DNA of 57,809 bases from Chloroflexota bacterium (GTDB lineage Bacteria; Chloroflexota; Anaerolineae; B4-G1; SLSP01): NCBI GenBank assembly GCA_029555965.1, contig JAKQHY010000096.1:1-57809 (forward strand). Reading direction: 5' to 3'. Made by a program: the position numbers and the translations under genes. The notes under the pieces were generated by a model. That model did no database searches. It saw only the letters and a list, made by a program, of their open reading frames with translations, and had not been told where the DNA came from. Below, piece by piece: positions 749-53,640 of this stretch; the stretch's first letter is position 1, and each line of letters opens with the position of its first letter.

Positions 749-752
749 TCCG

Positions 753-812: not shown

Positions 813-828
813 TTTCAAGGGAGACGCT

Positions 829-1866
829 ATGCCCACTCTATTCTCACCCCTCACCTTGCGCGGACTCACCCTCCGCAACCGCATCGTCATGCCGCCGATG
901 TGCATGTACTGCGCCGGGACGGACGGCCTTGCTGCCGACTGGCATCTTTCGCACTACCACGCGCGGGCGCAGGGCGGCGTGGGGCTGATTCTGCTGGAAG
1001 CAACCGCCGTGGAGCCGCGGGGCCGCATCAGCGCGGGCGACCTGGGCCTGTGGGACGACGCGCAAATCGCGTCGCTGGCCCGCGTCGCGGCGCTGGCGCG
1101 GGCGGAAGGCGCGGCCATCGGCGTCCAACTGGCGCACGCCGGGCGCAAAGCCTGGAGCGCGGACAACGGCCACGGCCCGGAGGACCCCGTCGCGCCGAGC
1201 GCCCTGCCCTACGACGCTGACTGGCGCACCCCGCGCGCCCTCACCGAGACGGAGATTGACGCCATCGTAGCCGCGTGGCAGGCCGCCGCCCGCCGCGCCG
1301 CCGCCGCCAACCTCGACGCCATCGAAATCCACGGCGCGCACGGCTACCTGGTCAACGAATTTCTTTCCCCTCTCAGCAACACCCGCGCCGACGCCTACGG
1401 CGGCAGCCCGGAGGCCCGCCGGCGCTTCCTGTTGCGCGTCGTAGACGCCATTCGCGCCGCCTGGCCGGAATCCAAACCGCTGTTCGTGCGCCTCTCGGCG
1501 GTGGACTGGCGCCCCGACGGCGTCACCCTCGACGACACGGTCGCCACGGCGCGCGCCCTGCGCGACCACGGCGTGGACGCGATCCACTGCTCCAGCGGCG
1601 GCCTCGTCTCCGCGCGCCCGCCCGACGTCGGCCCTGGCTACCAGGTCCCCTTCGCCGCCCGCGTGCGCCAGGAGGCGGCCATCCCCACTGTCGCCGTCGG
1701 CCTCATCACCGCGCCGGAATACGCCGACGCGCTCATCCGCACCGGTCAGGCCGACCTCGTCGCGCTGGGCCGCGAGCTGCTGCGTCACCCCCACTGGCCC
1801 CTCGACGCCGCCCGCGCCCTGAAACACGACATCGCGTGGCCGAAGCAATACGAACGGGCGAGATAG
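829..1866 (+). CDS. NADH:flavin oxidoreductase, Old Yellow Enzyme (OYE) family (YqjM/NamA-like)
   Basis: N-terminal LTLRNRIVMPPM, the HGAHGYL motif, EFLSP...RxDxYGGS and the CSSGG C-terminal region are typical of OYE TIM-barrel flavoproteins. An AAGGGAG ribosome-binding site (RBS) lies before the ATG at 829. Confidence 0.9.
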   Translation: MPTLFSPLTLRGLTLRNRIVMPPMCMYCAGTDGLAADWHLSHYHARAQGGVGLILLEATAVEPRGRISAGDLGLWDDAQIASLARVAALARAEGAAIGVQLAHAGRKAWSADNGHGPEDPVAPSALPYDADWRTPRALTETEIDAIVAAWQAAARRAAAANLDAIEIHGAHGYLVNEFLSPLSNTRADAYGGSPEARRRFLLRVVDAIRAAWPESKPLFVRLSAVDWRPDGVTLDDTVATARALRDHGVDAIHCSSGGLVSARPPDVGPGYQVPFAARVRQEAAIPTVAVGLITAPEYADALIRTGQADLVALGRELLRHPHWPLDAARALKHDIAWPKQYERAR

Positions 1867-2048
1867 GAGTTAGGAGTGAGGAGTGAGGAAAGCCAGCATC
1901 GAGAATCGAGAATCATGAATCAAGAATCCAGCATCGAGCATCGAGCATCCAGCATCCAGCATCCAGCTTCCAGCATCCAGCATCCAGCATCCAGCATCCA
2001 GCTTCCAGCATCCAGCATCCAGCATCCAGCATCCAAAATCCAAAATCC
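1867..2048. repeat. ~180-bp array of 7-bp-periodic tandem repeats (gagtgag, aatcgag, catccag x~12, aaaatcc families)
   Basis: Phase is maintained over ~26 units. The array begins right after the OYE stop codon and is translated in-frame as ASSIQHP repeats in the ORF 1876..2799. Confidence 0.85.
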
Positions 2049-2799
2049 CTTGGCCTGGAATCGCACCAGCTACGTCCTGTTGAGCGTCTTCCTGGTCACA
2101 GTGGGTCTCATCGTCATCGTCTGGTGGCCGCTGGCGGAGGATGTGCTGAGCACCTACGATCCCACCCGGCCCTGGTGGGCGCAGATGGATTGGCTGCTGC
2201 TCGGCGACTTTTTGGTGATGTCGCTGCTGATTATGGGGGGAGCAGACCTCAAAAGCGACGCCTGGATCATGCTCGTGGGACTCGCCGGGGGATTGGCGAT
2301 TGAGGGTTGGGGCACACAGACGGAAATCTGGACGTACTACACGCTGGAGCGCCCGCCGCTGTGGATTATCCCGGCGTGGCCCATCGCCAGCCTCTCGATT
2401 GACCGGCTGGTGCGCCTGCTGCGCCTCCGCCTACCGGACCATCGCGGCTTCGTCGCCCTCTACTGGGTCATCTTCCCGGCCTTCCTCGCGCTGATGCTGC
2501 CCTTCGTCTGGCCGACGCTCGACAAATCGCTCACCCTGCTGGCGCTTGCGGCGTGCGCGTTGATCACCCTCACGCCCACGGATCACCGGCTGGCCGTGCT
2601 GACCTTCCTTGCCGGCAGCGGCCTGGGGTACTTCCTGGAACTGTGGGGGACGACGCGGGAATGTTGGACGTACTACACCCAACAGACACCGCCGCTCTTC
2701 GCTGTGCTGGCGCACGGGATGGCGGCGGTGGCGTTCTGGCGGGCCGGGCGGTTAACCCGCCACGTCTGGTTTGACCTGGTTCTAAAACGTAAAACGTAA
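1876..2799 (+). CDS. Hypothetical polytopic membrane protein with an internal duplication. The true start is probably downstream of the repeat-derived N-terminus.
   Basis: Multiple transmembrane (TM) helices and two copies of a WGTxxExWTYYT..PPL motif. The first ~55 codons are translated from the heptamer tandem-repeat array (ASSIQHP x n), so the annotated start is doubtful. Confidence 0.55.
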
Positions 2800-3826: not shown

Positions 3827-3838
3827 CCATCCCAAAAA

Positions 3839-3922
3839 CCTCACCCCCTCACCCACACTCCCACACCCCCCTACTCCCATACTCCCCCTCCCCCCCTCTC
3901 CCCCTCTCCCCCCCCTCCCACG
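3839..3922. repeat. C/T-rich (G-rich on the minus strand) homopolymeric tract with C-runs up to 8
   Basis: Seen directly in sequence. Encodes the Gly/Glu/Arg-rich tail of the radical SAM protein and separates it from the small downstream ORF. Confidence 0.8.
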
Positions 3923-6044: not shown

Positions 6045-6083
6045 CAAACCTTCGCGCCTTTGCGCCTTTGCGTGAAACTCATT

Positions 6084-6725: not shown

Positions 6726-6804
6726 AAAATAACGCTCCTGAAAAAAGGAGAAAGTTTCACGCAAAGGCGCGAAGGCGCAAAGATTTTTAAGATTGGACTA
6801 AATT

Positions 6805-31326: not shown

Positions 31327-32328
31327 TCAAAATTCTTGCAACAATGTCAGCAACGCTCGATCCAGCTTGTGTCCGCGCCAATCTTCGTAGGCCACATCCG
31401 CCCGCCCGGAATCCAGGATGCCAAACGCGCCCCGGAAATTCCACAGCGCGTAGCCGATGTTGTACCCCGTAAGAATGTCCAACACGTCGCGGAGCCAGGC
31501 CAGAACAACGGCGTGCGGCGTCTGGTTGAAGGCGCCGCCCTCGCCGCAGTGGACGCCGACGCCCTGCGCCGCCAGATCGGCCCATTGGCGATAGTGCGCT
31601 TCCAGCCGCGCCCGATCCCACGGCTCGCCGCCATGCAACGCGCCGGGCCACGTCGGTTCGGGCAGCCCGCCGCTGTCCACCCAACCGGCCTTGTAATGAC
31701 TCACGCCCATTGGGATGTAGGCCCGGCAGCTCTGCGCCACGCCCAAATCGGCCAGTTCCGGGCAGGGATCGTTGCCCCAGGTCAAGCCGTCAATGAGGAT
31801 CAGTCGCTCCGGGTCCACGGCGCGAATGGCGGCCACGGCGGCGCGAATCACACGGGCGTGATCCTCGCGCGTCATAAAGTCTGGCGTGGGGTTCTTCGGC
31901 TCGTTAATCAGGTTGAAGCTCAATTGCTCTGAGGGTATGCCCTGATAACGCCGCGCAAATGTCTCCCAATGGAAGCAAAACGCATCGAGCGCGGCTCGAT
32001 CCTTCCACAGATTGAAGGGTTCATCGCGCTCCCCATTGACCGAGTAGCCCGGCCCACGGTGAAAATTCAGGTCAATGTGAATGCCATATTGCTGCCCCAG
32101 TCGCAGCACGCGATCCACCTTCTCCAACATCGGCTCGTGGAGTTTGTAGGGATCGCCGTCCTCGATCCACAGCAGATAGCACGCCGGGATGCGGGCGAAG
32201 TTGAACCCCCAATCGCGCATCCAGCGGAAATCGTCCTCGCGGAAGTTGCCGTCATTGCGCGTGGTAAACAATTCCAGCAGATTAAAACCGCGCCAACGAG
32301 GTAGCACCGTTTGTTTGATGTCAGACAT
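31327..32328 (-). CDS. Glycoside hydrolase family 5 (cellulase-like)
   Basis: GH5 TIM-barrel motifs: FNFARIP, the NEP catalytic acid (LINEPKNP), and GEGGAF region. Confidence 0.8.
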   Translation of the reverse strand: MSDIKQTVLPRWRGFNLLELFTTRNDGNFREDDFRWMRDWGFNFARIPACYLLWIEDGDPYKLHEPMLEKVDRVLRLGQQYGIHIDLNFHRGPGYSVNGERDEPFNLWKDRAALDAFCFHWETFARRYQGIPSEQLSFNLINEPKNPTPDFMTREDHARVIRAAVAAIRAVDPERLILIDGLTWGNDPCPELADLGVAQSCRAYIPMGVSHYKAGWVDSGGLPEPTWPGALHGGEPWDRARLEAHYRQWADLAAQGVGVHCGEGGAFNQTPHAVVLAWLRDVLDILTGYNIGYALWNFRGAFGILDSGRADVAYEDWRGHKLDRALLTLLQEF

Positions 32329-32478
32329 ACGCCCTCCTGGTCGCTACTTGTTTTTGAATAAGCTTTCAAGAGATATTGGGCGCAGATAAACGCGGATGAA
32401 CGCTGTTTTTAAATTATCTGCGTGAACCTGCGAAAACCTACGCCCTCATAGCCTTTTTCATTATTGTGGAACAGCCTT

Positions 32479-32651
32479 AGAATCTATCCGAAAATTCGTT
32501 TTGGCCCACGATTTGCGCCTAAAGGCGCGGTTTGAAGGGCATTTTTTCGTGGGCGGGCGTAGCCCGCCCAAAAAACACCTTCCTGAAAGCGGCTTTAGCC
32601 GCAAGACCCGGCGCAGCGGCGCAACGCCGCTATAATTTTCGGATAGGTTCT
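32479..32651. mobile_element. MITE-like repeat copy 1 (~173 bp, 18-bp terminal inverted repeats AGAAyCTATCCGAAAATT)
   Basis: Near-identical (~90%) reverse-complement copy at 43281..43456. Internal hairpins (GGGCGGGC-tac-GCCCGCCC, GCGGCGTTGCGCCGC, GCGCCTTTAGGCGC). It has no coding capacity. Confidence 0.75.
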
Positions 32652-32688
32652 TAATGAGTAACGAATCATGAGTGACCAGACTCTCTAC

Positions 32689-33669
32689 TCATTTCCCATT
32701 ACCTATTTCCACTTTTCTGAATAAAAAACGTTGCCACAAGTGCGCGAGGCGGCCTACGTCGGGGATATATTCGGTCACAAACTCAAAATCATAAGTTGCC
32801 ATAAAAGTTTTCAACGCCTCGGGTTCATAGGCGCGCACAGTCAACAATTCCAAGGATTCTCCCGACTTTAAGGCAACATCTCCCAGAAAACAGGTGAAGG
32901 TGAATGCGTCGTGGGCGCGGAAGAAGTAGGCGTAACGCCACGCTTCGAGGTCGGGATCAGGCGTCTCGACGCCATACAATTCCCCGGCCTCCGGCGCAAT
33001 ACAGAGGCGCTCCAACAGGTGGGTAAAAAACAAGGGCATATTCTGGGGCAATTGTAGCAGCCGCGCGCGCAGCGCCTGGTCGCGTTCCGGCTCGCCATAT
33101 AATGGCACAATGTCCAGGTAAAGGTAATCGCCCGGCGTCAGCAGTGTCTGCAAAATCCCGGCGATCACGGGTTGCTCGAAATTGCCAAACGTCCCCCCCA
33201 ACATCACATAGAGACGCGCATCAAAGATGCCAAGCAACTCCTCTAGCGTCTGTCGCAACATGGCGGTTGAAAAATCAGCCAGCAGAAACATCCGCGTGAA
33301 AGTCTCGTCGGCCAGAGTGCGATCCGCGAGGCGCAACATCGTCCGCGACGAATCCACCCCAAAGTAGGCAAACGGGTATCCCTCTGCGTGGGCCTGGCGC
33401 AGCAGCATTTTCTCCGCCCCCGCATTGCCGCAGCCCAAGCTCACAAAAGCCAGCGTCCGATCAGGCTGCCAGAAGGGCTGTTGGGCAAAGAAGGCATACT
33501 CATCCTGCCATTTGAGCGCCTTAAAGTCCTCCCCGCGATAGGTGTAAAACGATTCTGCCCCATCCATCAAGTAAAAGAGATTCTGGCGGATCTTCCGCGT
33601 GCGTTGAAACTCGGTTAAATAGTCAGTTTCCAGCTCATATTCTGGGGATACTACAATGACCTGTGCCAT
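32689..33669 (-). CDS. EgtD-like SAM-dependent methyltransferase (Methyltransf_33 / histidine N-alpha-methyltransferase family)
   Basis: The SLGCGNAGAEKMLL nucleotide-binding region and overall length and architecture resemble EgtD-family enzymes. No EgtB/EgtC is nearby. Confidence 0.6.
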   Translation of the reverse strand: MAQVIVVSPEYELETDYLTEFQRTRKIRQNLFYLMDGAESFYTYRGEDFKALKWQDEYAFFAQQPFWQPDRTLAFVSLGCGNAGAEKMLLRQAHAEGYPFAYFGVDSSRTMLRLADRTLADETFTRMFLLADFSTAMLRQTLEELLGIFDARLYVMLGGTFGNFEQPVIAGILQTLLTPGDYLYLDIVPLYGEPERDQALRARLLQLPQNMPLFFTHLLERLCIAPEAGELYGVETPDPDLEAWRYAYFFRAHDAFTFTCFLGDVALKSGESLELLTVRAYEPEALKTFMATYDFEFVTEYIPDVGRLAHLWQRFLFRKVEIGNGK

Positions 33670-33685
33670 ACCCGCTCCTTGAGGT

Positions 33686-34189
33686 TCAATCGCTCTGCCG
33701 CCGCAGGCGTGATAGCAGACGTCGCAAACCCAACGCAGCCAACAACGTCAACAGTACCGCCACAGCAAAGTTGAGGCGCAGATGCACACCCAGAGACAGT
33801 CCAGCCAATATAGCGCCGATCCCCAAGATGAGCGCCAACTGTCCCAAATGCCGCCGCTCCAAGTCATCACTGGCCTCAATGCGCGCCACCAGGTGGCAAC
33901 GATGGTAAAAATGTTCCATATCCCAGGCCGCCAACAGCGCCAGCGTCCCCACCAGCAGCCAGCCTGATGGTAGATCGGACAGCGCGCCTATCATCACCAT
34001 CAGCAGGATACCGGTCGCACACAGGTTGCCCAACGATGGCTGCTTACGATAGACGCCCACCAACCACCAGACTCCCAGGGCCAACAGGATCAACACCTGC
34101 CCGGTTCTGCCAGATAGAGCGTAAGCCGCCAACGGCGTCCCGGCAGCCAGGGCAATGCAGTATGGCAACAATCGCGGCGTCCACTTCAT
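33686..34189 (-). CDS. Hypothetical membrane protein (4-5 TM)
   Basis: The ATG at 34189 overlaps the DUF58 stop (ATGA). Hydrophobic throughout. Confidence 0.5.
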   Translation of the reverse strand: MKWTPRLLPYCIALAAGTPLAAYALSGRTGQVLILLALGVWWLVGVYRKQPSLGNLCATGILLMVMIGALSDLPSGWLLVGTLALLAAWDMEHFYHRCHLVARIEASDDLERRHLGQLALILGIGAILAGLSLGVHLRLNFAVAVLLTLLAALGLRRLLSRLRRQSD

Positions 34190-35472
34190 GATGACACCTC
34201 CACAGCGCGGAACCACAACGGCGTCCGTCCGATTGCAGCATAGACCGTCTGCTCAAATGCCTGGTTGACGTCCCAATCCACCACGGGAATGCCGGCGTTG
34301 CGCAGTTTGCGCAGCAACAGGGCGCGTTCCAGTTGTGCGAGTCGGACGGCCACCTTCCCCAATTCCTGGTCGGCCAATGTGCGGGACTCAAAGCGCACGG
34401 GGTCAGGGCTGACCACCAACATCTGGTAACCGCGCGAACGCAAGCGGCTCAACATCTGTGGGTCCTCCTCACACAGTGGGCTGATGAGGACGAGCTGCGA
34501 TTTGGCGGCAAAGAGGCGCGTGGGCAAATAATCCAGGCTCTCAAACACCAGGCTGTCGCCGGTTTTGGCCCGGGCCAGTCCCCGCAGGATCTGCTCGCGC
34601 TGCACCTTGCCGTAACCGGGGAAAGTCCATTCCAGGCCGCGTCCGTAGACCAACAACGTCACCCGGTTGCCGTCGTTCAAAAACACGCCCGCCAGCGCCG
34701 CCGTCGCACGCACACTGTACTCAAACAGCGATTCGCCATTGACGCGATAATCGTTGCGGCGACGCGCGTCCAAGATCAAGCCCACGTCGGCCACGCGCTC
34801 CTGCTCAAACTCGTTCGTGAACAGACTACGCGAATGTCGCGCGCTGATGCGCCAGTTGATCCAGCGTTGCGGGTCGCCCGGTTGATACTCACGCACCCCG
34901 AAGAAGTCCACGCCAGAACCGCCCGCCCGCGCCGGGATCGGGCCGGCATAACCGCGCGTCTGCAAAGGGCGGATCGGCACACGCCGCAGGCGCAACACCT
35001 CCGGCAACACCAGCAGCACTTCCGGCGCCTCCAGACGCGCGCGGCGCCGGAATAACCCCAACGGCTCGGTCGCTACAACATGAATGTTGCGAAACTCATA
35101 AGTGCCACGCAGTCCTTTGACCACATAACGCAGGGTCAGGGTTTCACCGGCGGGCAACCGCCCCCCCAACTGGGTCTCTCCTTCGACCAGCGACAGTCCT
35201 TCGGGCAACATGTCACTGACCAGGATCTCCGCGAGATGACTGCCGAGGTTCTGAATGACTATCGTGACTTCCACCGGCAGTTCCTGCGACACACATGTTG
35301 TGTTCAACGTGCGCGTGACTTGAAGTCGTAGTTCTTCAGGGCTTTGCAGCAACGCCGCCAGGATATAGACAGCCGGCGGGATTGCCAGGGCCACCAGTTC
35401 CCCACTAAGGGCAAAGAAAGCAACGATGAGGAACAAGTACAGCCCAATACTCAACAACGACAAACGTTTCAC
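34186..35472 (-). CDS. DUF58 domain protein (VWA-like; MoxR-associated)
   Basis: DUF58 signature DFFGVREYQPGDPQRWINWRISARH. Start uncertain: GTG at 35472 with GAGG upstream, or the ORF start at 35556 with a long overlap. Confidence 0.75.
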   Translation of the reverse strand: MKRLSLLSIGLYLFLIVAFFALSGELVALAIPPAVYILAALLQSPEELRLQVTRTLNTTCVSQELPVEVTIVIQNLGSHLAEILVSDMLPEGLSLVEGETQLGGRLPAGETLTLRYVVKGLRGTYEFRNIHVVATEPLGLFRRRARLEAPEVLLVLPEVLRLRRVPIRPLQTRGYAGPIPARAGGSGVDFFGVREYQPGDPQRWINWRISARHSRSLFTNEFEQERVADVGLILDARRRNDYRVNGESLFEYSVRATAALAGVFLNDGNRVTLLVYGRGLEWTFPGYGKVQREQILRGLARAKTGDSLVFESLDYLPTRLFAAKSQLVLISPLCEEDPQMLSRLRSRGYQMLVVSPDPVRFESRTLADQELGKVAVRLAQLERALLLRKLRNAGIPVVDWDVNQAFEQTVYAAIGRTPLWFRAVEVSS

Positions 35473-35483
35473 AATCGTCAACC

Positions 35484-36440
35484 TCAGATCACAGGAACCG
35501 GGACCTGCCGCAACACTTCGGTGATAACGTCGGCAGAGGCATGGCGATTCATCCACAAATCCGGTTCAAGAATCAGCCGGTGGGATAAGCCGGGGAAAGC
35601 GAACAGTTTGACATCGTCAGGCAGCACGAAAGTGCGACCATGCATCGCGGCCCAGGTGCGCGCGAGCTTCAGCAAGGCCAGAGAACCACGCGGGCTGGCG
35701 CCCACTGCAACGTGGCGGTTCTGCCGCGTCCCCTCCACCAACTCGACAATGTAGCGCTCCACGTCGTCGTCCACATGAACGCCTTCGATGGCTTCACGCA
35801 GCGCCAACAACGTCTCGGCATCCACTACCTGCTCAAGCGTGAAGGCATCCTGCCGACGTTTGCGCCGCCGCCGCAAGATTTCCTGTTCCTCCGCGGGGGT
35901 GGGATACCCTACCGATAACTTCATGATGAAGCGATCCAGTTGCGCTTCCGGCAGGGGAAAGGTGCCCTCGTATTCGATGGGGTTCTGGGTCGCAATAACA
36001 ATGAAGGGATCGGGCAGCGGCATGGTCTCGCCTTCCAGCGTGACCTGGTATTCCTGCATCGCTTCCAGCAGCGCCGACTGCGTTTTAGGTGAAGCGCGGT
36101 TGATCTCATCCGCCAGAATGATGTTAGCAAAAATTGGGCCAGGGCGCAGCACGAACTGGTTTTGTACGCGATCGTAGATATACCCCCCCGTGATATCGCT
36201 GGGCAACAGGTCTGGGGTAAATTGAATTCGCTTAAAGGTCAACCCCAGAGCGTTGGCAAAACTGTTGGCGATGAGCGTCTTGGCCAGGCCGGGGTAATCT
36301 TCCAACAACACATGTCCCCCCGAGGTTAAAAAGGCCGCCATCACCTTTTCCAACACCTCATGCTTCCCTACGATGGCCTTCTCCACCTCCGCAATGATAC
36401 GGTTCGTCAAAGGGGCGATTTCAGTGGTTTTCAATGTCAT
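35484..36440 (-). CDS. MoxR family AAA+ ATPase
   Basis: Walker A (LLEDYPGLAKT), Walker B (DEINRASPKTQSALLEAM), and sensor motifs. ATG at 36440 with a GGAGG RBS. Confidence 0.85.
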   Translation of the reverse strand: MTLKTTEIAPLTNRIIAEVEKAIVGKHEVLEKVMAAFLTSGGHVLLEDYPGLAKTLIANSFANALGLTFKRIQFTPDLLPSDITGGYIYDRVQNQFVLRPGPIFANIILADEINRASPKTQSALLEAMQEYQVTLEGETMPLPDPFIVIATQNPIEYEGTFPLPEAQLDRFIMKLSVGYPTPAEEQEILRRRRKRRQDAFTLEQVVDAETLLALREAIEGVHVDDDVERYIVELVEGTRQNRHVAVGASPRGSLALLKLARTWAAMHGRTFVLPDDVKLFAFPGLSHRLILEPDLWMNRHASADVITEVLRQVPVPVI

Positions 36441-37158
36441 GCACAACCTCCATTTCATTTTCGAGGAATATCAACAACTGTCCCATGTCCACATTTAGAG
36501 TGGGCTGCGCGTCACGATTCTGGCGGATCCCCAGTCCCCACAGAAAACGCGCCCACCAGGATTGTGAAGTCGGCGGCTGCGCCGACATCCCGGCTCGCAA
36601 GTAGGTGGCGATTTCGGGCGACAGGTTATATTGGCCGCTTTGCAAGCGCTCACGGACTTCACCCGGCGTAATCTTGTCCTCGTAGGAAAGCACGTCGGTC
36701 GCCAGCTTGGCCATGTTGCGCGCCATGCCCCACTTTGAATACTGTCCCGTGCCCGCCAACGTCAGCCGCCGCAGCCAAAACGCCACCCGCCCCTCCGGCG
36801 GCCCGCCCTCCGGCAACTGTGGGGAGTGAATGATGCGTTTGGCGCCGAATAAACTGGGGTAGACAATGCGGATGAAGAAAAAGATGGCTAAAAACCAGAA
36901 AAATGGTTGGGGGATTCCTTCCAGTAAAAAGCGCAGTAGCCACAGAATATACAGAATTGGCAGCACCAGCAGTTTCATAGCCAGGCCGCGTACCAGAAAC
37001 ATCAAAATCAACGCGATGAACACTAGCAGCACAATTGCCAGCGCCCATCGCCGGGGACCTCCTCGCACAACAAATTCAAGCAGCGAACCCGGCGTCAATT
37101 TCCAACGGGGTTGCTGAGAAGGGGACGTGAGATTATCCGCACTATGAGACACTTGCAC
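36421..37158 (-). CDS. Hypothetical membrane protein of the MoxR/DUF58 cluster
   Basis: Two or three TM helices with a soluble C-terminal region. GTG start immediately after the tagacgg repeat array. Start uncertain. Confidence 0.5.
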   Translation of the reverse strand: MQVSHSADNLTSPSQQPRWKLTPGSLLEFVVRGGPRRWALAIVLLVFIALILMFLVRGLAMKLLVLPILYILWLLRFLLEGIPQPFFWFLAIFFFIRIVYPSLFGAKRIIHSPQLPEGGPPEGRVAFWLRRLTLAGTGQYSKWGMARNMAKLATDVLSYEDKITPGEVRERLQSGQYNLSPEIATYLRAGMSAQPPTSQSWWARFLWGLGIRQNRDAQPTLNVDMGQLLIFLENEMEVVHDIENH

Positions 37159-37166
37159 CTCTTATC

Positions 37167-37270
37167 AGTAGACGGTAGACAGTAGACGGTAGACAGTAGA
37201 CGGTAGACAGTAGACGGTAGACAGTAGACGGTAGACGGCAGACGGCGCTGTTTGCTTTCTACTGTCTACC
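37167..37270. repeat. tagacgg/tagacag heptamer array (x~9) followed by an inverted ctactgtctacc
   Basis: Lies between DUF4129 and the downstream membrane-protein gene. Confidence 0.85.
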
Positions 37271-37272
37271 CA

Positions 37273-38175
37273 TCACATGTTCCGACAGGCCTCGACGATG
37301 GAGGTGAGGCAAACGATCGCTTGATCTTCCTCCTGTTCGCCAGGCATGGCTGCACCATACCGCACTTTCTCGAACAACAAAGTTAATTGATGCACTGAAC
37401 TTCCAGGCAATCCGTAATGCGCCAGACGCGACTCGAATTCCCTGGGCGTCATCGCGCTGTCACGCTGAATTCCGCGCTGGGTGCGCAACACCTCGCTCAT
37501 CTCACGGTAGCACCGGATAATGGTATTGCGAAAGTCAGCGCCGGCCTGCAACGCATCCAATGCCGATTGCGCCCCCTGCGCCAATTCATCCATCGGCGTG
37601 GTTTTAGGCGTCAGGCGATGGGTCGCCGCCCAGATCAGTCGCGCGAGGCCAAGCACCAACGCCAACGCCAGAACAAAACTGGCAGCCCAGGTCAACCAGG
37701 GCGGGGAATTGGTCTCAAATTCTGGGATATCTTCCAGAGATGCTTCGGGCAGAGGGTCTTCCTGCATCGCCATGTTGGAAAGGTCTATCGGCTCTACCAT
37801 TTGCGTCATAGTTTCCATAAAACTGGAACGCAGCAGCAGCCAGGCCAGGAATATGAAGAGCAATACCCGCAATAACTCGCGCAACATCTGCTTGCGCATG
37901 TCGGGAAAAAAGATAATGCCTATGATAAAAAACAGGAGAAGGGATAAAAAGAGAACGGATAGGGTCCGCGCGAGAAGCGCCATATCATTGCCGAAGGGAA
38001 TCGGCGCGACCGCATCGCCGGTGTGACCGAGATCGCCAAATAGAAGCTGCCACCAAACACTCCAGGGCCAGCCCTCTGACAATTTCAGCTCCGACAGCCC
38101 GGCAGCCAGCAGCCACAAAGCCAGCAGAACGCTGCCAACCAGCAACCAGGCGCGCCGCTTTTCACGCTTATTCAT
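37273..38175 (-). CDS. DUF4129 domain membrane protein
   Basis: C-terminal TPREFESRLAHYGLP...LLFEKVRYGA matches DUF4129. N-terminal TM helices are present. Confidence 0.65.
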   Translation of the reverse strand: MNKREKRRAWLLVGSVLLALWLLAAGLSELKLSEGWPWSVWWQLLFGDLGHTGDAVAPIPFGNDMALLARTLSVLFLSLLLFFIIGIIFFPDMRKQMLRELLRVLLFIFLAWLLLRSSFMETMTQMVEPIDLSNMAMQEDPLPEASLEDIPEFETNSPPWLTWAASFVLALALVLGLARLIWAATHRLTPKTTPMDELAQGAQSALDALQAGADFRNTIIRCYREMSEVLRTQRGIQRDSAMTPREFESRLAHYGLPGSSVHQLTLLFEKVRYGAAMPGEQEEDQAIVCLTSIVEACRNM

Positions 38176-38361
38176 TTTGAATTCCTGTGGGTATTCTTAA
38201 GCCCTTAGTGAGGCAACTTATGGGGTACATGGACGCTATTTATGTTTGTCACCTGTTGGAGATGTGAACACATTCACAAGTCATTATACTCTACAACGGC
38301 CAAACTACCAAACCAAACACCGCCCCAGCAAACTGAGGCGGTGTTTGGGGGGTGGCTCACG

Positions 38362-40842
38362 TTATTCGACCAATGTTGCCGGCGAATCCACGGGTAGCGG
38401 CTCGGCAAGGGGGGGAGCCGGCGGCGCGGGCGCCAAAGCATACGCCAGCACCTCGGTGACATCATCCACCATAATGAATTCCAGATCGGCGCGCACGGTA
38501 TCCGGGATTTCATCCAGGTCGGCTTCATTCAAACGCGGCATAATGATCTTCTTCAATCCGCAGCGGTGCGCCGCCAGGGATTTATGCTTGAGGCCGCCAA
38601 TCGGCAGCACCTGGCCCTGCAGCGTCACCTCGCCGGTCATGCCAATATCGGCATTGACGGAGCGCCCGGTCAACAGAGAGACCAGCGCCGTGACCATCGT
38701 GATGCCGGCCGAGGGGCCATCCTTGGGGATCGCGCCCGCCGGAACATGCAAATGAATCTTGCCCTTGCACCCATCTTCACAGATCCCCAATTCGCGCCAA
38801 TGCGCTTCGACGTAACTGAGGGCGATCCGGGCCGACTCGCGCATCACGTCCCCCAATTGACCGGTAAGAATCAGGCTGCCATCGCCGCCAGGCATCCGCG
38901 CCGCTTCCACAAACAACACATCGCCGCCGGCAAATGTCACCGATAGCCCGGTCGCCACACCGGGTTTCTCGGTGCGCAAAGCAGCCTCAAAGCGATAGCG
39001 TGGCTTGCCCAACAATTCATGCACCCTGGTCGGGTCAATCTGAATAGGCAGCACGGTCTTCTCAGACTGTTCGGCAATACCGGTCGCCACTTTGCGGCAG
39101 ATTTTCCCAATGGCGCGCTCCAACTGACGCACCCCCGCCTCGCGGGTATAATCCCGGATCATGGTGCGAACGGCCGCTTCGTCAAATACGATCTCTTCCG
39201 GCAGCAAGCCATTGACCTCAAGCTGGCGCGGCGTCAGGTATTGATTGGCAATATGCACCTTGTCGTATTCCGTGTAGCCGTCAATTTCAATAATTTCCAT
39301 GCGATCCAACAACGGCGCGGGAATGGTGGCAGTCGTGTTCGCCGTGCAGATAAACAACACCTTGCTCAGATCGAAATCCACATCCAGATAATGATCGCGG
39401 AAAGCGTGATTTTGTTGCGGATCCAGCACTTCCAACAGCGCCGAAGAAGGGTCGCCTCGCCAATCCGCCCCGATTTTGTCCACTTCATCCAGCATGAAGA
39501 CCGGATTCTTGACTGCGGCCCGCTTGACGGCCTGCATAATGCGCCCCGGCATCGCGCCGATGTAAGTGCGGCGGTGCCCCCGAATTTCGGCCTCGTCGCG
39601 CATCCCGCCGAGGCTCATACGGGTAAATTTGCGTCCCAGGGCGCGCGCCACCGACTGGCCCAGGGAGGTCTTGCCCACACCAGGCGGCCCGACCAACGCC
39701 AGAATGGCGCCCATTCCTTCCACCTTGCGCCCCTGTAAATCGGCCGATACGGTCTCATCCAGGCCACGCTCCAGGCGGAGCTTGCGCACGGCCAAAAACT
39801 CCAGGATGCGTTCCTTTACATCTTTCAGATTATAGTGATCGGCGTCTAACACCTGGCGCGCATTGGCAATATCCAGATTATCTTCAGTCAAAGTCTGCCA
39901 CGGAATCGCAATCAACCAATCCAGATAGGTTTTAATCACCCAATATTCGGCAGCCTGCGGCGGCATTTTCTCCAACCGTTCCAATTCCCGCAGCGCTACC
40001 TCTTTGGCTTCCTCAGATATCCCACATTCTTCGATTTTCTGGCGATACTCATCAGCCTCGCGTTTGCCTTCGTCACCCTCCCCCAACTCCTTGCGGATGG
40101 CATCCATCTGTTGGCGCAAATAATACTCGCGTTGCGTCTTCTCGATCTCTTCCTTGGCCTTTTCCTGGATGCGCTGCCCGATCTCCCGCACCTCCAACTC
40201 ACGGGTGAGGACCTTGACCAGGAATTCCATCTTGTGCATCATGCGATCGGTTTCCAGGAGTTTCTGCCCTTCCTCCATCTCCACCCGCATATTGGACGCG
40301 AGCAGATACACCAACAGTCGCAAGTCTTCCAACTGTTGAATAAAACGAATGGCCTCTTCCGGGAATTGGGGGATCAATTCGGCCAGTTGGGTGGCGACTT
40401 CCAACAGACTGCGGCGCAACGCCTCCTCAATCACCGAATTTTCCACGATATCAGGAATCAGCTCAATGTGTGCCTTAAGGTATGGGTCTTCCGCCGTCCA
40501 ATGCACCGCGCGGAAGCGCTCCAACCCCTGAATAAAGACGGTCAGAGTGCCGTCCTCCCCGCGCATCACACGATGCACGATAGCCACCGTTCCCACTGAA
40601 TGGACTTCATCCGGGTGGGGAATCTCCACCGAAGCATCCTTCATGGCGACCAGTCCAACAATACGACTGCCCCGCTCGACATCCTCAATCAACTGCACCG
40701 AACGCGGAATCCCCACGGCCAACGGCATCACAATATAAGGAAAAGCCACCGTATTGCGCAACGGCAAAATCGGCAGTTCCTTAGGAATCCGCCGAATGAT
40801 TTCGTCAAGATTCTGATCTTGTAAGTTAAACCAGGGTAACAT
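38362..40842 (-). CDS. lon: ATP-dependent Lon protease
   Basis: LON N-terminal domain, Walker A GPPGVGKTS, and protease domain with KDGPSAG (catalytic Ser). ATG at 40842 with GGAGGAAAAA upstream. Confidence 0.95.
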   Translation of the reverse strand: MLPWFNLQDQNLDEIIRRIPKELPILPLRNTVAFPYIVMPLAVGIPRSVQLIEDVERGSRIVGLVAMKDASVEIPHPDEVHSVGTVAIVHRVMRGEDGTLTVFIQGLERFRAVHWTAEDPYLKAHIELIPDIVENSVIEEALRRSLLEVATQLAELIPQFPEEAIRFIQQLEDLRLLVYLLASNMRVEMEEGQKLLETDRMMHKMEFLVKVLTRELEVREIGQRIQEKAKEEIEKTQREYYLRQQMDAIRKELGEGDEGKREADEYRQKIEECGISEEAKEVALRELERLEKMPPQAAEYWVIKTYLDWLIAIPWQTLTEDNLDIANARQVLDADHYNLKDVKERILEFLAVRKLRLERGLDETVSADLQGRKVEGMGAILALVGPPGVGKTSLGQSVARALGRKFTRMSLGGMRDEAEIRGHRRTYIGAMPGRIMQAVKRAAVKNPVFMLDEVDKIGADWRGDPSSALLEVLDPQQNHAFRDHYLDVDFDLSKVLFICTANTTATIPAPLLDRMEIIEIDGYTEYDKVHIANQYLTPRQLEVNGLLPEEIVFDEAAVRTMIRDYTREAGVRQLERAIGKICRKVATGIAEQSEKTVLPIQIDPTRVHELLGKPRYRFEAALRTEKPGVATGLSVTFAGGDVLFVEAARMPGGDGSLILTGQLGDVMRESARIALSYVEAHWRELGICEDGCKGKIHLHVPAGAIPKDGPSAGITMVTALVSLLTGRSVNADIGMTGEVTLQGQVLPIGGLKHKSLAAHRCGLKKIIMPRLNEADLDEIPDTVRADLEFIMVDDVTEVLAYALAPAPPAPPLAEPLPVDSPATLVE

Positions 40843-41009
40843 TTTTTCCTCCAACCGTAATACGGGACATGCCCGCCGCTAAACGTATTAGCTTATTGCC
40901 AGCATTATAACACGCTTAGATTAGAACCATATCAGAAAACGGGAGTGATGAGGGAGGAATATGGGAACACACTCAGTAGATCGAAAATTTGCGTTCGCAG
41001 TGGCAAGGC

Positions 41010-42761
41010 TCAAGCAACACTGGACGCTGCCAACACCTGCCCCTCCAGCATTTCCACCAGATGGGCGTCGGCCAGGTAACGAGGAATTTTGACCTGGTTG
41101 TCATTGCCGCCAGGGTTGCGCACAAACAATGCCTCATGGAGTAGATCAAAGCTGCCTGGCTTTAATACTTTGATCTGGGGCATCCCCACGGACATGGCCC
41201 CGCGGAGATGACAAAAAGCGGCGTTGACGTCGCACAAACACCGATCCAGCTCCTGCGCGGTTTCATTCAGCGAGGCCGACGCCGCAGTGGGGGTGTGATT
41301 CCCCAATAACTCGACGTAAAGTACATAGCGTCCGGGGCTTTGGGAAACATCTACGGCAAAGGTGTGGTCGCGCATACGCACGTCGCTCCCGGCAAGCCAC
41401 GCCGCCGCCATGCGTTCCACAGCAGTGTTGAGATGCACCTCGGTGCTCTTCTCGCCAGCCAGGTCCAGTTTGACGGATTTCCTGCACACGAAGAGCAGCT
41501 TCGGCGATTGATGGTGGTATCCGACGATTTTGACGATGTCGCCTATCCGATAACGATACAGCCCACTGTAATTCGTCATCACCAGTTCGTAGGATTCTCC
41601 CACCGTCAGAGCGTCCGGCAGCACCGTTTGCGGCTGCGCCTGATCCATTTCGGCGACAGGGATAAATTCAAAGTAGGCCGAGTCTGGCAGCAAGATGTAT
41701 TCGTCGCAATTCGGTTGCAGAGATATTCCGATAGTTCCTTCAGACGCTGCATAGATGGCCCCGCAAAAGGGAACGTCGCCCACATAGGCGCGGATGGCAG
41801 GAACATTCACCGCAAAGTTCCCAGTAGTTACGGCGCTAATCCGCGCCATGTGGGGCCAGATGCGCGGCACGATACCCGCAAATCCGCCCGCGGCAGCCTG
41901 GCGCAGTTCAGCGGCGCGCGCCGGGTCAGGAGAAAGTTGAGCGGCCAGGCGCGCGCGTAGCTCAGGCGACAGGTTCAGATTCTCGGTCAAGGTTCCCTGT
42001 TCTATGTCGCGCACCAGCTCCTCCCAACGTTGCTCCAGGGTCAGCAACCATTGCAACACATAGGAGGCAAACACGGCCACGATATATTGCGCGTTTCGCT
42101 CGCGCAATCCGTATAGGGCATGCAAGTAGCGGGCGGTTGCCCTGTCTTTGAGCGTGAAAACGTCGGACGGGGAACACCAGAGGTGCGGTACTATCGCTGC
42201 GATACGCTGGACTGCCGACCCTGTAGCGGTACTGACGGGCATTTCTTGCGCAGACGATTGCTCCAAACGGGCATAACTCATCAGCGAAATACCCTTTCCC
42301 AAAACACTCTTGGTCTTCAGCGTTTGCCCCGGCGACAACACGCCGGCAAGCATGCCATACAGCATACCGAATCTATTGCCATTGCGCACTTTGGGAATCA
42401 ACTTCGCCGGGCCGGTAGTGCCAGAGGTGAAAACAAGTCCGACCACCGGTCTGGCCGTCAAGATATTGGCTTCGCCATTCCTTATGCGCCGAATAACGGC
42501 TTCGTAATCGCCGTAATGGCTTAGCGGCACGGCGGTCCGATAGTGCTCAGAAACCGCCCCTCCGACCAGGATTTCGTCAAAATGGTGCAAGCGACCGAAC
42601 TCGGTCTTTTGATTCTCTTGCAAGATGCGCTTCAAGGTGCGCTGTCGGACTGCGCGCGCTCGACGGGTCTGCTGTTCGAGTCTTAACCGAAGGCCATGCC
42701 CGACCATGAAAATGATCTGGCGCACAAAAGCGGAAAACCACATGGACAATTTCTCTCTCAT
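41010..42761 (-). CDS. GH3 family protein (auxin-responsive GH3-like adenylating acyl-acid amido synthetase superfamily)
   Basis: Adenylation motif LVFTSGTTGPAKLIPKV and the overall GH3 architecture and length (583 aa). Confidence 0.7.
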   Translation of the reverse strand: MREKLSMWFSAFVRQIIFMVGHGLRLRLEQQTRRARAVRQRTLKRILQENQKTEFGRLHHFDEILVGGAVSEHYRTAVPLSHYGDYEAVIRRIRNGEANILTARPVVGLVFTSGTTGPAKLIPKVRNGNRFGMLYGMLAGVLSPGQTLKTKSVLGKGISLMSYARLEQSSAQEMPVSTATGSAVQRIAAIVPHLWCSPSDVFTLKDRATARYLHALYGLRERNAQYIVAVFASYVLQWLLTLEQRWEELVRDIEQGTLTENLNLSPELRARLAAQLSPDPARAAELRQAAAGGFAGIVPRIWPHMARISAVTTGNFAVNVPAIRAYVGDVPFCGAIYAASEGTIGISLQPNCDEYILLPDSAYFEFIPVAEMDQAQPQTVLPDALTVGESYELVMTNYSGLYRYRIGDIVKIVGYHHQSPKLLFVCRKSVKLDLAGEKSTEVHLNTAVERMAAAWLAGSDVRMRDHTFAVDVSQSPGRYVLYVELLGNHTPTAASASLNETAQELDRCLCDVNAAFCHLRGAMSVGMPQIKVLKPGSFDLLHEALFVRNPGGNDNQVKIPRYLADAHLVEMLEGQVLAASSVA

Positions 42762-43036
42762 GCTATAATTTCCTCAACATTGTCTTTGACTCACGCAACG
42801 AGCCTACCCGAGCGTTTTTCGTATGGTTTGGTTGTGCAAGCAATTCGATCTATTCGCTTGCGCGGTTCCGAAACAAAAGGAGGTTTTGGGGACTGAGACA
42901 TACGCCTATCTGAGATCTGCTGCTAGGGGAAAAACTGCTTAATTACAAAAAAATGGATTGCCCTCCGCGAAATAGAAAGCAACCCGATATTACAGAACGA
43001 TAACCAATGCGCAACACTACTTCTATATGCCTATTG

Positions 43037-43110
43037 TGGGCGGCACAGGACTTGAACCTGTGACCTCCTGCGTGTAAAGCAGGCGCTCTGACCAACTGAG
43101 CTAGCCGCCC
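43037..43110 (-). tRNA. tRNA-Val (anticodon TAC)
   Basis: Folds manually into a cloverleaf: acceptor GGGCGGC/GCCGCCC, D-stem GCTC/GAGC, anticodon stem CCTGC/GCAGG with loop TTTACAC, T-stem ACAGG/CCTGT with loop TTCAAGT, discriminator A. No encoded CCA. Confidence 0.85.
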
Positions 43111-43280
43111 GAACAGGAGACATTATACCACAGGCAAAGCTTGCCGCAAATAAGTATAATCAATGAGGAAATTCTCCGTTGAATCCATTCAATTCAATGG
43201 GATTTACGCAAAGAAATGGGACGCCAATGATGAAAATCTTTCAACACAAAGGGCACAGAGGGTCTTCTCTATGCACACTA

Positions 43281-43456
43281 AGAACCTATCCGAAAATTAT
43301 AGCGGCGTTGCGCCGCTGTGCCGGGTTTTGCAGCTAAAGCCGCTTTCAGGAAGGTATTTTTTCGTGGGCGGGCTACGCCCGCCCACGAAAAAATACCCTT
43401 CGAACCGCGCCTTTAGGCGCAAATCGTGGGCCAAAACGAATTTTCGGATAGATTCT
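43281..43456. mobile_element. MITE-like repeat copy 2 (reverse-complement of copy 1)
   Basis: Same terminal inverted repeats (TIRs) and internal hairpins as 32479..32651. Lies ~170 bp from the tRNA-Val and 38 bp upstream of the next gene. Two spurious ORFs overlap it. Confidence 0.75.
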
Positions 43457-43493
43457 AAGTGCTTTGTGAGTATATACAGATTAAGGAGATAGG

Positions 43494-44537
43494 ATGAATC
43501 TGCAATCAAACAAAACTATCACCCCCCTCCCCTGCGCGGAGGTTATCAAAGCCGTCGAACGCCGCACCCCCTCACGCATCCCCCTGGTGCGCGCCAAATG
43601 GTGGGGCGAGGGTCTCTGGGAACAATACGGCGAACGGCTCAACGCCTTCGACCGTTACCCGGAAGACGTGGTGCAGTTGTGGATCGAACCGCTGGATTAC
43701 GACCAGATGGGTCTTTCGTGGGAGATCGATCACGAGGGGGCGCACGACGCACGCATTGTGCTGGACGACTGGGGCAAGCTGGACGAGTTCATCGCCAAGC
43801 TGCCCGATCCGGCGACCGATCCGCAGATTGCGTCCCTGGCGGAACAAGCGGAGCAAGCCCATGCACAGGATCGCTACGTCCTGTTCTCGTTCTGGCGGTT
43901 GTTCTTCGAGCGCCCGTGGAGCATCAGAGGCATGACGAATCTGCTTATGGACTACTACACTGCACCCGCCGAAATCCACCGCCTGCACGACGCCCTCTGT
44001 ACCCTGTACTGCGGCTACATCGAACAGGCCATCCGCGTGCTGAAACCCCACGGCTTCTGGACGAGCGACGACCTGGGCCACCAGAAACAGCCCTTCATGC
44101 GCCCGCGTACCTTCCGCGAGTACCTCAAACCCTATTACGTCCGCATCGGCGAGACGCTGCGCCGCCACAACCTGCACTGGTGGTTGCACTCCTGCGGGAA
44201 CAATACGCCCCTGCTGCCCGATTTGATCGAGGCGGGTGTGGATGTGTTCCACCCCGTGCAGAAGCACACGATGGACGAGGTCGCCGTTGCCCGCGAGTTT
44301 GGCGACCGGCTCACATTCCTGGCGGGTATTGACGTGCAGCACGTCCTTCAGGAGCAGTCGCCCGACGCGGTGCGCGCCGAAGTCCGCTTCCTCATAGATA
44401 CCTTCGACCGCCCTGACGGCGGAATGTGCCTCGCCGCCGGCAACGGCATCGTGGCGGGGACGCCCTTTGAAAACATCGAGGCGTTTTTGGATGAAGCAGC
44501 GCGCTATGGGACGGCGCACCGGCAGCAATTTGCGTAA
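43494..44537 (+). CDS. Uroporphyrinogen decarboxylase (URO-D) family protein (MtaA/CmuA-like methyltransferase-type)
   Basis: URO-D TIM-barrel family similarity over the full length. AAGGAG RBS 5 nt upstream. Confidence 0.6.
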   Translation: MNLQSNKTITPLPCAEVIKAVERRTPSRIPLVRAKWWGEGLWEQYGERLNAFDRYPEDVVQLWIEPLDYDQMGLSWEIDHEGAHDARIVLDDWGKLDEFIAKLPDPATDPQIASLAEQAEQAHAQDRYVLFSFWRLFFERPWSIRGMTNLLMDYYTAPAEIHRLHDALCTLYCGYIEQAIRVLKPHGFWTSDDLGHQKQPFMRPRTFREYLKPYYVRIGETLRRHNLHWWLHSCGNNTPLLPDLIEAGVDVFHPVQKHTMDEVAVAREFGDRLTFLAGIDVQHVLQEQSPDAVRAEVRFLIDTFDRPDGGMCLAAGNGIVAGTPFENIEAFLDEAARYGTAHRQQFA

Positions 44538-44572
44538 TTTTAAGAGACTATCCGAGCACAGGAAAATTTGAT

Positions 44573-44866
44573 ATGAAAACAACAGTCTCGTACGATCCAG
44601 AAAGAGTATTAGCGACAGAAGAAAGCAAACTAAAAAGCAAATTGAGGGACAAACAAAGCCTTAAAGAATACGCAGTAGCTATACTGATCGCTATTGCGTA
44701 CTATGTCATTGCCAGCTTCTTTGGAGAGGATTCTTCAGTTACAGGAGCAATAACTTGGATGATGCTATGGATATTGCTTTGTCAGATAACTGATTTAGAA
44801 CGCAAAAATGCTGCACTAGAAAGGAAGCTCAACGAATTGGAAAAAAGCCTGGAGTGCGAACACTAA
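44573..44866 (+). CDS. ORFan small membrane / coiled-coil protein in an AT-rich island
   Basis: AGGAAA RBS, one TM segment, and a C-terminal coiled-coil. Local GC is far below the genome average. The 3' end overlaps the convergent gene by 38 bp. Confidence 0.45.
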   Translation: MKTTVSYDPERVLATEESKLKSKLRDKQSLKEYAVAILIAIAYYVIASFFGEDSSVTGAITWMMLWILLCQITDLERKNAALERKLNELEKSLECEH

Positions 44867-47519: not shown

Positions 47520-47670
47520 CGCGGCGCATTATCGCATGGGTGAAGCCGGGAGTCAACTTGTCATTCATAGCGCTCTTGGGTATAGTACGTAAAACATAAA
47601 ACGTGAAGCTTTCACAGTAAAATCATCACGTTTCACGTGTCACGTTTCAGAAATCCCTTTCAGGAAAACT

Positions 47671-52807: not shown

Positions 52808-53560
52808 ATGGACATCATCACAGAACTGTTACAAGCCATTGCGCCCAACGCAGCGCGGGCGAAGCCGGTAGATGTGCGCATTGGCGCGCATTGGAGCATC
52901 ACAACCTTTGAAGTGGATAAACGGCTGCGGGCGGGGTTGTCTTCGACGTTGGGCGGCGGAGATGACCATCATCATGGCGGCGGATGGCCGGTGCGCGACG
53001 CCGGGCGGCTGCTGGATGCGGATGCGGCGACACTGGCCGCGCTGGCCCGCTCAGACAGCACGCAGGAGGCAAGCGTGGGCTTCGCCGCGATCAACGCGCT
53101 GCTGGATGTGGACGAGGCTGCCTGCGAAGAGCTTAACGCCGCCGACCTCCTCGCCGAGCAGGGCGCCGGGCGCAAAGTGGCGGTGGTTGGGCACTTTCCC
53201 TTCATCCCACACCTGCGCGAGATCGCCGAGACGCTGTGGGTACTGGAATTGCATCCGCGCGCGGGCGATCTGCCGGCCGACTGCGCCGCCGAGGTGCTGC
53301 CGCAGGCCGATGTGGTCGCGCTCACCGGTACGTCGCTGCTCAACCACACATTTGACGCCCTGATCGCGCTGTGCCGCCCGGACGCTTACGTGGTGATGCT
53401 CGGTGGGACGACGCCGCTTTCGCCGGTACTCTTCGACGCCGGCGTGAACGTCATTGCAGGAACACTCGTCGTAGATCCTGGTTTGGCCGTTCTCGCCGTG
53501 AGCCAGGGCGCCACGTTCAAACAGATTCCGGGGAAGCGGTTGGTGGTGCTCAGAAGTTAG
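52808..53560 (+). CDS. DUF364/DUF4213 domain protein (Rossmann-like, putative metal-chelation family)
   Basis: Family-level architecture similarity. AAAGGA RBS. Confidence 0.5.
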   Translation: MDIITELLQAIAPNAARAKPVDVRIGAHWSITTFEVDKRLRAGLSSTLGGGDDHHHGGGWPVRDAGRLLDADAATLAALARSDSTQEASVGFAAINALLDVDEAACEELNAADLLAEQGAGRKVAVVGHFPFIPHLREIAETLWVLELHPRAGDLPADCAAEVLPQADVVALTGTSLLNHTFDALIALCRPDAYVVMLGGTTPLSPVLFDAGVNVIAGTLVVDPGLAVLAVSQGATFKQIPGKRLVVLRS

Positions 53561-53640
53561 GAGTGAGGAGTGAGGAGTGAGGAGCAAGACAACTCGCAAC
53601 TCCTAACTCCTAACTCCCAACTCGCAACTCCTCACTCGTG
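53556..53640. terminator. Inverted heptamer-repeat hairpin (gagtgag x3 ... ctcctaa/ctcgcaa arms) between convergent genes
   Basis: Starts at the TAG stop of the DUF364 gene and ends at the pcm stop. The arms are imperfect reverse complements. Confidence 0.5.

Follow-up and report, generated by a model that had tools for sequence, protein, structure and literature searches.

A multicopy MITE of Anaerolineae that shares its 17-bp ends with IS5-family insertion sequences

RESULTS

The stretch of DNA analysed here, 57,809 nucleotides from a Chloroflexota bacterium of the class Anaerolineae and hereafter called the window, carries two copies of a short palindromic element that is very probably a non-coding, IS5-derived MITE using in trans an IS5-family transposase encoded elsewhere. 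The element has terminal inverted repeats (TIRs) of 17 bp, is flanked by target-site duplications (TSDs) of 3 bp, is present in many copies, lies between genes and has its TIR in common with transposase-bearing insertion sequences (ISs).

Two inverted copies of one element in the window

A repeat search of the window and an alignment place two discrete, inverted copies, A and B, where the earlier note on this DNA had put them (Table 1). The copies lie 10.6 kb apart in opposite orientation, and the search recovers them as two pairs of repeat arms, 32476-32575/43360-43459 (100 nt, 96% complementary) and 32570-32656/43276-43362 (87 nt, 94% complementary). When aligned they are one element, 94-96% identical with a single 3-bp indel; the identity, put at ~90% before, is ~95% as measured. 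The similarity is gone 1-2 bases beyond the duplicated TTA, giving the motif TTA-GAAyC...GrTTC-TTA. The TIR consensus of the element is GAAyCTATCCGAAAATT, and its length is 17 bp rather than the 18 bp first reported, the leading A of the longer version being the last base of the 3-bp TSD. Between the left and right TIRs of copy A there is one mismatch in 17 bp. The TIR pattern GAAYCTATCCGAAAATT has exactly four matches in the window, which are the two ends of copy A and the two ends of copy B, and their number stays at four when up to 3 mismatches are allowed. By chance, 0.10 occurrences are expected in the shuffled window, and none of 100 shuffles contained four. When all related elements were compared with the window by BLAST, no copies beyond A and B emerged, and the ends of the window contig are not inside any copy.

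Table 1. Positions of the two window copies and their parts, and transposase-bearing elements with the same 17-bp end (positions of L085 are those of its own sequence)
Feature	Position	Strand	Length	Description
MITE copy A	32480..32650	+	171 bp	left TIR to right TIR
MITE copy B	43282..43455	-	174 bp	inverted relative to copy A
Copy A left TSD	32477..32479		3 bp	TTA
Copy A right TSD	32651..32653		3 bp	TTA
Copy A left TIR	32480..32496	+	17 bp	GAATCTATCCGAAAATT
Copy A right TIR	32634..32650	-	17 bp	GAACCTATCCGAAAATT on minus strand
Copy B TSD, first	43279..43281			TAA on plus strand, TTA in element orientation
Copy B TSD, second	43456..43458			TAA on plus strand, TTA in element orientation
Local hairpin 1	32515..32528	+		GCGCC-TAAA-GGCGC; invariant in 21/21 subfamily copies
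Central hairpin	32542..32575	+		T-run, GC-rich stem, 3-nt loop, stem, A-run
Local hairpin 3	32589..32602	+		GCGGCTTTAGCCGC, GCGGC-TTTA-GCCGC
Local hairpin 4	32615..32631	+		AGCGGCG-CAA-CGCCGCT, then ATAATTTTCG
L003			947 bp incl. TSDs	Anaerolineae bacterium CHL1; same 17-bp TIR, TAA/TAA, IS5-family transposase
L095			944 bp incl. TSDs	Anaerolineales JTS-AC409; same 17-bp TIR, TAA/TAA, IS5-family transposase
L085	753-2203		1451 bp incl. TSDs	Longilinea sp. MO16; same 17-bp TIR, TAA/TAA, IS5-family transposase
L071				fourth transposase-bearing element with identical 17-bp end; cut by contig end

Both copies are intergenic. On one side of copy A a Methyltransf_33 gene ends (32689..33669, minus strand) and on the other a GH5 cellulase gene begins (31327..32328, minus strand); copy B stands between a tRNA-Val, placed by ARAGORN at 43036-43110 on the minus strand, and a URO-D-family gene (43494..44537, plus strand). 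The earlier note was right that copy B is close to the tRNA, at a distance of 171 bp, but the 38 bp that it measured to a ribosome-binding site is in fact the distance from the end of copy B to the ATG of the URO-D-family gene at 43494. The lack of coding potential that it reported is borne out: the ORFs that cross the copies are mechanical only, and changes of 1-4 nt in the lengths of T-runs and A-runs between family copies would break any reading frame. Moreover, tblastn with transposases found no match in the window elements (171 and 174 bp), and an Rfam E-value scan of 32300-43700 returned only the tRNA-Val and chance matches, among them mir-1179 with 29.4 bits where the gathering score is 80.

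Every complete subfamily copy is flanked by a 3-bp duplication

Sister copies were collected with a structural pattern of the subfamily's interior, which identified 29 contigs from two JGI metagenomes (Ga0116144 and Ga0209605). Once redundant and truncated copies had been removed, the set held 21 complete, non-redundant copies, namely the two of the window and 19 from the metagenomes, and these occupy at least 21 independent insertion sites, each in a different sequence context. The copies are 171-177 bp long with a mean pairwise identity of 94.5%, and in all 21 the TIR is perfect or departs from the reference end at no more than one position. Sister copies are found in both orientations relative to the adjoining genes; their location is intergenic, often near gene ends.

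The earlier note had proposed counting copies and looking for TSDs, and had allowed that only two copies, without TSDs, might exist. That outcome is contradicted, since there are many copies and they have duplications: the 3-bp TWA flanks are identical at all 21 sites (12 TTA/TTA, 9 TAA/TAA). We assign the triplet to the duplication and not to the TIR because its middle base co-varies as a direct, not an inverted, repeat. Because TTA is the reverse complement of TAA, an inverted repeat running on into the flank would read TTA...TAA; direct identity is seen instead, which is the product expected from a 3-bp staggered cut at T-W-A. The bases beside the triplet are biased as well, with C at -1 in 13 of the 21 copies and G at +1 in 14, that is, toward C-TWA-G. 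At four sister copies (contigs L119, L120, L121 and L128) TAA/TTA, or its junction with the element end, is the stop codon of the adjacent ORF, a coincidence that points to TWA-targeted insertion often falling at or next to stop codons in a genome of ~60% GC.

Relatives of the subfamily at 73-82% identity are present in four MAGs, three from Anaerolineae (L010, L064, L093) and one from Thermoflexus (L082), and in MAG R24_97 many contig ends carry 95-99% identical copies. Three incomplete members were also seen: a degenerate one that has no left TIR (L134, 14338-14508), one with a decayed right end (L138, 6766-6931) and one broken exactly at the central hairpin (L055, 2255-2358). L055 and L134 had been considered as larger parent elements and were rejected, each being the defective copy just described.

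One 17-bp end bounds many unrelated elements

We scanned one genome per species for exact TNAGAAYCTATCCGAAAATT and obtained at least 104 stretches, from ~53 assemblies among the matches listed. Of the ~53 species-level genomes among these listed matches, ~47 bear the label Anaerolineae, Anaerolineales or Chloroflexota. For about 30 of the 104 listed matches a contig end is no more than ~150 nt away and the interior of the element faces it, as expected of a multicopy repeat that breaks short-read assemblies. An assembly break falls within copy A in the MAG GCA_035340735.1, which is of the same strain and 99.99% identical to the window. Paired TIRs bound at least 21 clusters of unrelated internal sequence, 47-250 bp in length. 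Over all subfamilies with this TIR, the flanking triplets are identical in 40 of 55 elements among the matches listed, whereas 10,000 shuffles of the left-right pairing averaged 21.7 and never exceeded 33.

Outside Chloroflexota, the same terminal 20-mer with a CCTGC/T extension was observed in L013, L017, L018 and L052, from Methanoperedens, Nitrososphaerales and Saprospiraceae MAGs, a distribution that points to horizontal spread or, alternatively, to a much larger clade of ISs ending in this way. Two further stretches, L070 and L104, are the same sequence from one sample, binned both as an Actinomycetota MAG and as a Chloroflexia MAG.

Transposase-bearing insertion sequences with the same end

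A search for a transposase-bearing IS with the same TIR, also suggested in the earlier note, succeeded: three complete elements (L003, L085 and L095) come from Anaerolineae genomes other than the source genome, and a fourth is truncated (Table 1). The ORFs of the full-length ISs encode 281-316 aa; NCBIfam NF033580, 'IS5 family transposase', matches at 221.8 and 204.5 bits (cutoff 110), and Pfam PF13340 (DUF4096) and PF01609 (DDE_Tnp_1) score above their cutoffs in the IS transposases. ISs of the NF033580 type ('transpos_IS5_3') probably correspond to the IS427/IS1031/ISL2-like subgroups of ISfinder. In ISfinder, the short IS5 subgroups have ends that begin with GA- and make a 3-bp TNA duplication, an architecture that the element shares in its GAAyC ends and TWA flanks. 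The resemblance to short IS5 ISs extends to the 17-bp TIR starting with GAA/GAG, the 3-bp TNA TSD, and full-length relatives of ~0.94 kb with one transposase ORF. Unlike them, the window element is without a transposase and has the TIR alone in common.

In L003 (1742-1758) and L085 (756-772) the transposase gene runs at its 3' end into the TIR. Read from the sequence, AATTTTCGGATAG codes in these two elements for the C-terminal residues I-F-G and a TAG stop (ATT TTC GGA TAG). The need to encode these residues may account for the near-invariance of the TIR even in the archaeal L017 (Nitrososphaerales), whose divergent IS5-family transposase is only 31-33% identical, yet which has the same terminal 20-mer. 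Beside its transposase, L085 also carries a passenger ORF (1698..2171, 157 aa) with a match to the Pfam DMP19-like protein (E = 1.9e-10).

Of the annotated elements in the plasmid collection, those most closely related are Leptospira IS5-family elements, with ~45% protein identity. One of these, on a Leptospira weilii plasmid (44.6% protein identity), reads TTA-GAACCGGTCTCAAAACT...AGTTTTGAGACCGGTTC-TTA, and is like the present element in its TTA-GAACC...AAAAyT architecture. Even the nearest plasmid-borne transposases are less than 50% identical, and the plasmid relatives are annotated only as 'IS5 family transposase'.

L003, L085 and L095 were rejected as the direct parent IS, because what they have in common with any MITE subfamily is the TIR only, at most 20 nt. 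A tblastn search of the 57.8-kb window and of the ~270 kb of sister-copy contigs L119-L147 revealed no gene for a transposase of this type.

Taken together, the duplications at 21 of 21 sites and the TIR in common with IS5-family ISs support the original proposal of a non-autonomous element mobilised in trans. A transposase of the DUF4096 + DDE_Tnp_1 type, supplied by a full-length IS elsewhere, would recognise GAAyCTATCCGAAAATT, move the element and insert it at T-W-A triplets, with a preference for C-TWA-G; repair of the staggered cut would then duplicate those 3 bp. We infer that the transposase acts in trans on these ends, and that a partner of this kind is, or formerly was, present in this genome.

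Age and mobility of the window copies

The window insertions are not recent, because copies A and B differ by ~5%. This divergence is also consistent with a different state of affairs, in which the IS5-derived MITE is immobile in this genome, no cognate transposase is left and the copies are fixed relics kept by drift or by a host-level role. We regard that as a serious but somewhat doubtful alternative. The empty transposase search of the window and sister contigs would fit it, as would the loss of 3 bp from the central stem of copy A, the degenerate copies L134, L138 and L055, and the presence of both insertions in all assemblies of this strain. However, copies from different loci can be identical or almost identical (the highest pairwise identity is 1.000), perfect or near-perfect TIRs are retained in 21 of 21 complete copies, and the transposase search covered a small fraction of the genome. 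These points count against the relic reading, and the element can presumably still move.

We also looked for alleles without the insertions. The predicted pre-insertion sequence of copy A is GGAACAGCCTTAATGAGTAACGAA, and the junctions of the empty alleles would be TGGAACAGCC-TTA-ATGAGTAACG for copy A and, on the plus strand, CTATGCACAC-TAA-GTGCTTTGTG for copy B. There were 0 exact matches to GGAACAGCCTTAATGAGTAACGAA in the metagenome contigs, and every contig with identical URO-D, GH5 and methyltransferase proteins either carries the element or ends within it, with no empty site among them. Searches for junction-spanning empty sites in all fetched DNA gave only self matches and one false lead. 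A URO-D orthologue that is 94% identical (L113) has no element within 162 bp upstream, in a flank too diverged to align. Several other candidates were rejected: URO-D orthologues at 79-81% identity are not syntenic, L020 has 13 bp of flank similarity to the copy B locus and no homology beyond, and the apparent pair L077/L123 is explained by a common nonamer-repeat and RBS motif. In L107, an assembly of the same strain, positions 1-125 joined to 118-4231 correspond to window 43245-43369 joined to 43424-47537, so that one arm of copy B's central palindrome, window 43370-43423, is lacking. Either the assembler erred at the inverted repeat, or the palindrome gave rise to a real deletion.

Hairpins within the element

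The whole element is an almost complete palindrome and folds as one long hairpin, at -51.8 kcal/mol (z = -6.2) as DNA and -98.8 kcal/mol (z = -10.5) as RNA. It contains four internal hairpins, not the three originally listed, the addition being hairpin 3 (Table 1). In copy A the central hairpin lacks 3 bp (ACG) of its 3' arm. The four-hairpin architecture is kept down to ~75% identity, in the Thermoflexus MAG and the three other Anaerolineae MAGs. In a covariation alignment of eleven members, which included the relatives at 73-82% identity, the pairing of the central stem is kept although 6 of its 22 pairs have changed on both sides. Over the whole structure, both-side changes fill 19 cells, compared with 6.5 in shuffles, none of 500 of which came to 19, and 2-6 with slid partners.

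The 3-nt loop of the central hairpin is found in both orientations among otherwise near-identical copies (GTA versus TAC, GCA versus TGC), and these inversions must be recurrent because they are present on both sides of an unrelated polymorphism. Loop inversion accompanied by apparently compensatory stem changes is the product of template switching at a quasi-palindrome, which favours a mutational reading. The stem covariation is thus more likely to be a mutational property of the palindrome than a sign of selection on RNA, as judged from the aligned copies.

A more ambitious interpretation, which we think unlikely, would make the single 17-bp end a common 'address' for a guild of unrelated MITEs across Anaerolineae, held near-invariant through the transposase C-terminus (I-F-G-stop), with the 21 or more families cross-mobilised by any resident IS of the clade and the hairpins functionally required. 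The hairpins would then serve a cruciform- or hairpin-dependent step of transposition or a host-level role, and their conservation, the stem compensation and the loop inversions would be something other than a by-product of palindromic origin.

The same structural features, that is, the very stable fold, the compensated pairs of the central stem and the invariant hairpin 1, together with an intergenic location often near gene ends, could also describe a dispersed structured host element (a REP/BIME-like palindrome, a small RNA or a cis-regulatory module) that was spread by its function. We hold this to be very improbable. Direct duplications of 3 bp at 21 of 21 sites and TIRs in common with transposase-bearing ISs are unexpected for REPs or RNA genes, no Rfam family matched, no REP architecture of 20-40 bp headed by GTAG or CGTC is evident by eye, and the copies are oriented both ways relative to adjoining genes. 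Nor do the hairpins look like signals for neighbouring genes. The central stem is not an intrinsic terminator in either direction because on both strands the T-run is 5' and the A-run 3' of it. Hairpin 4 was flagged as terminator-like, reading outward, and at copy A it faces away from any gene that it could terminate. A promoter scan predicted no outward promoter at copy B, and the sole promoter-like site at copy A is a hexamer pair formed at the junction and reading into the element. The loop inversions, finally, make palindrome-templated mutation likelier than selection on RNA.

Comparison with known mobile elements

Among eukaryotic relatives of IS5, PIF/Harbinger elements mobilise the Tourist MITEs, which prefer TAA/TTA. 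Canonical Harbinger elements make 3-bp TSDs and fall in one phylogeny with the IS5 groups (PMC12730594). Like the Tourist MITEs of PIF/Harbinger, the element described here is short, non-coding and bounded by TIRs, has a 3-bp TWA TSD, and belongs to a set of many unrelated subfamilies with one TIR. It differs in its bacterial host, in the sequence of its TIR and in its partner, a single-ORF IS without the Myb-like second protein.

Correia elements duplicate TA and have TIRs of ~26 bp. They have been linked to ISNme1, and BrickBuilt and related MITEs of P. gingivalis have TIRs that match IS5-family ISPg elements (PMC4596501). The Correia (NEMIS) elements of Neisseria and BrickBuilt of Porphyromonas gingivalis resemble ours in being small, non-coding, multicopy and intergenic, with IS5-matching TIRs and no transposase remnant (PMC4596501). 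TSDs of BrickBuilt are variable or absent, and it has an internal minisatellite (PMC4596501), whereas the present element has a strict 3-bp TWA TSD and a TIR of unrelated sequence. Membership of the Correia/NEMIS group was rejected on the 3-bp TSD, on the failure of a 2-bp model for the TAA-flanked copies and on the different TIR. REPs, which are 20-40 bp long with GTAG or CGTC heads and have neither TIRs nor TSDs (PMC3733652), and the RAYT-mobilised REP/BIME elements share with ours the form of GC-rich intergenic palindromes in many copies; membership was rejected here too, the element being ~174 bp long with 17-bp TIRs and a 3-bp TSD.

TA-containing targets are also used by IS630-type elements, and no partner was found in the window or sister contigs; a MITE moved by another superfamily, such as IS630/Tc1-mariner with its TA duplication, might therefore resemble IS5 at its TIR by coincidence. 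Such a coincidence is hardly credible. A 2-bp TA duplication does not fit, as the TAA flanks would leave AA beside the left end and TA beside the right end, whereas 3 bp fit in 21 of 21 copies; four independent IS5-family elements have the identical 17-bp end (L003, L085, L095 and L071), and in L003 and L085 that end even codes for the C-terminus of the transposase. That the two copies are remnants of a segmental duplication or inversion, as their inverted arrangement 10.6 kb apart might suggest and as the earlier note had considered in the form of a larger duplicated segment, can be dismissed: homology ends at the TIRs, the flanks are unrelated immediately beyond the duplicated TTA, and 19 more copies lie in unrelated contexts.

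Other repeats in the window and sister contigs

Arrays of a 9-bp unit (ATCCGTTSA / TSAACGGAT) are found in the window at 5353-5406, 6805-6850, 43174-43201, 46351-46418 and 46838-46956, and in sister-copy contigs as well (e.g., L120, L123, L127, L128 and L136). They are often inverted pairs ~30 bp apart, intergenic and just upstream of genes, and may represent either a REP-like element or an operator in repeated form. Several MITE copies are inserted within such arrays. A second dispersed repeat, GCGCCTTTGCGCCTTTGCGTGAAAC, occurs in the window at 6046-6079 and 6753-6786 and again at 49126; the first two form an inverted pair (34 nt, 91% complementary) that brackets a small minus-strand gene, and a pair in L140 (722-754 and 1006-1031) brackets only ~75 bp and a nested MITE copy. 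Tandem arrays of heptamers lie in the window at 1893-2035, 37166-37245, 748-811 and 53555-53638, and include (CCAGCAT)x20, (GTAGACG)x11, (CGCTATT)x9 and AACTCCT/AGTGAGG runs.

DISCUSSION

The family appears to be undescribed so far, although it is of a well-known kind, the IS5-derived MITE; the novelty claimed for it in the earlier note applies to the family and not to the kind of element. Our literature search found no paper that joins MITEs with Anaerolineae, and nothing relevant for MITEs and Chloroflexi. General understanding of transposons is left unchanged by the family.

For the host, the insertion of most interest is copy B. It has taken the place of almost the entire region upstream of the URO-D-family gene and adjoins the tRNA-Val, and it may therefore affect expression of the URO-D-family gene; no promoter is predicted inside the copy.

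Anaerolineae are abundant and poorly cultured members of anaerobic digesters, sediments and soils. The repeat family fragments short-read assemblies of these bacteria, and with its ends and its TWA target known, assemblers and annotators can recognise such breaks. Insertion polymorphisms are usable as strain markers. In addition, the family offers a clean bacterial counterpart to the Tourist-PIF/Harbinger system, with the same transposase superfamily, a 3-bp TWA duplication and one TIR that serves many MITEs.
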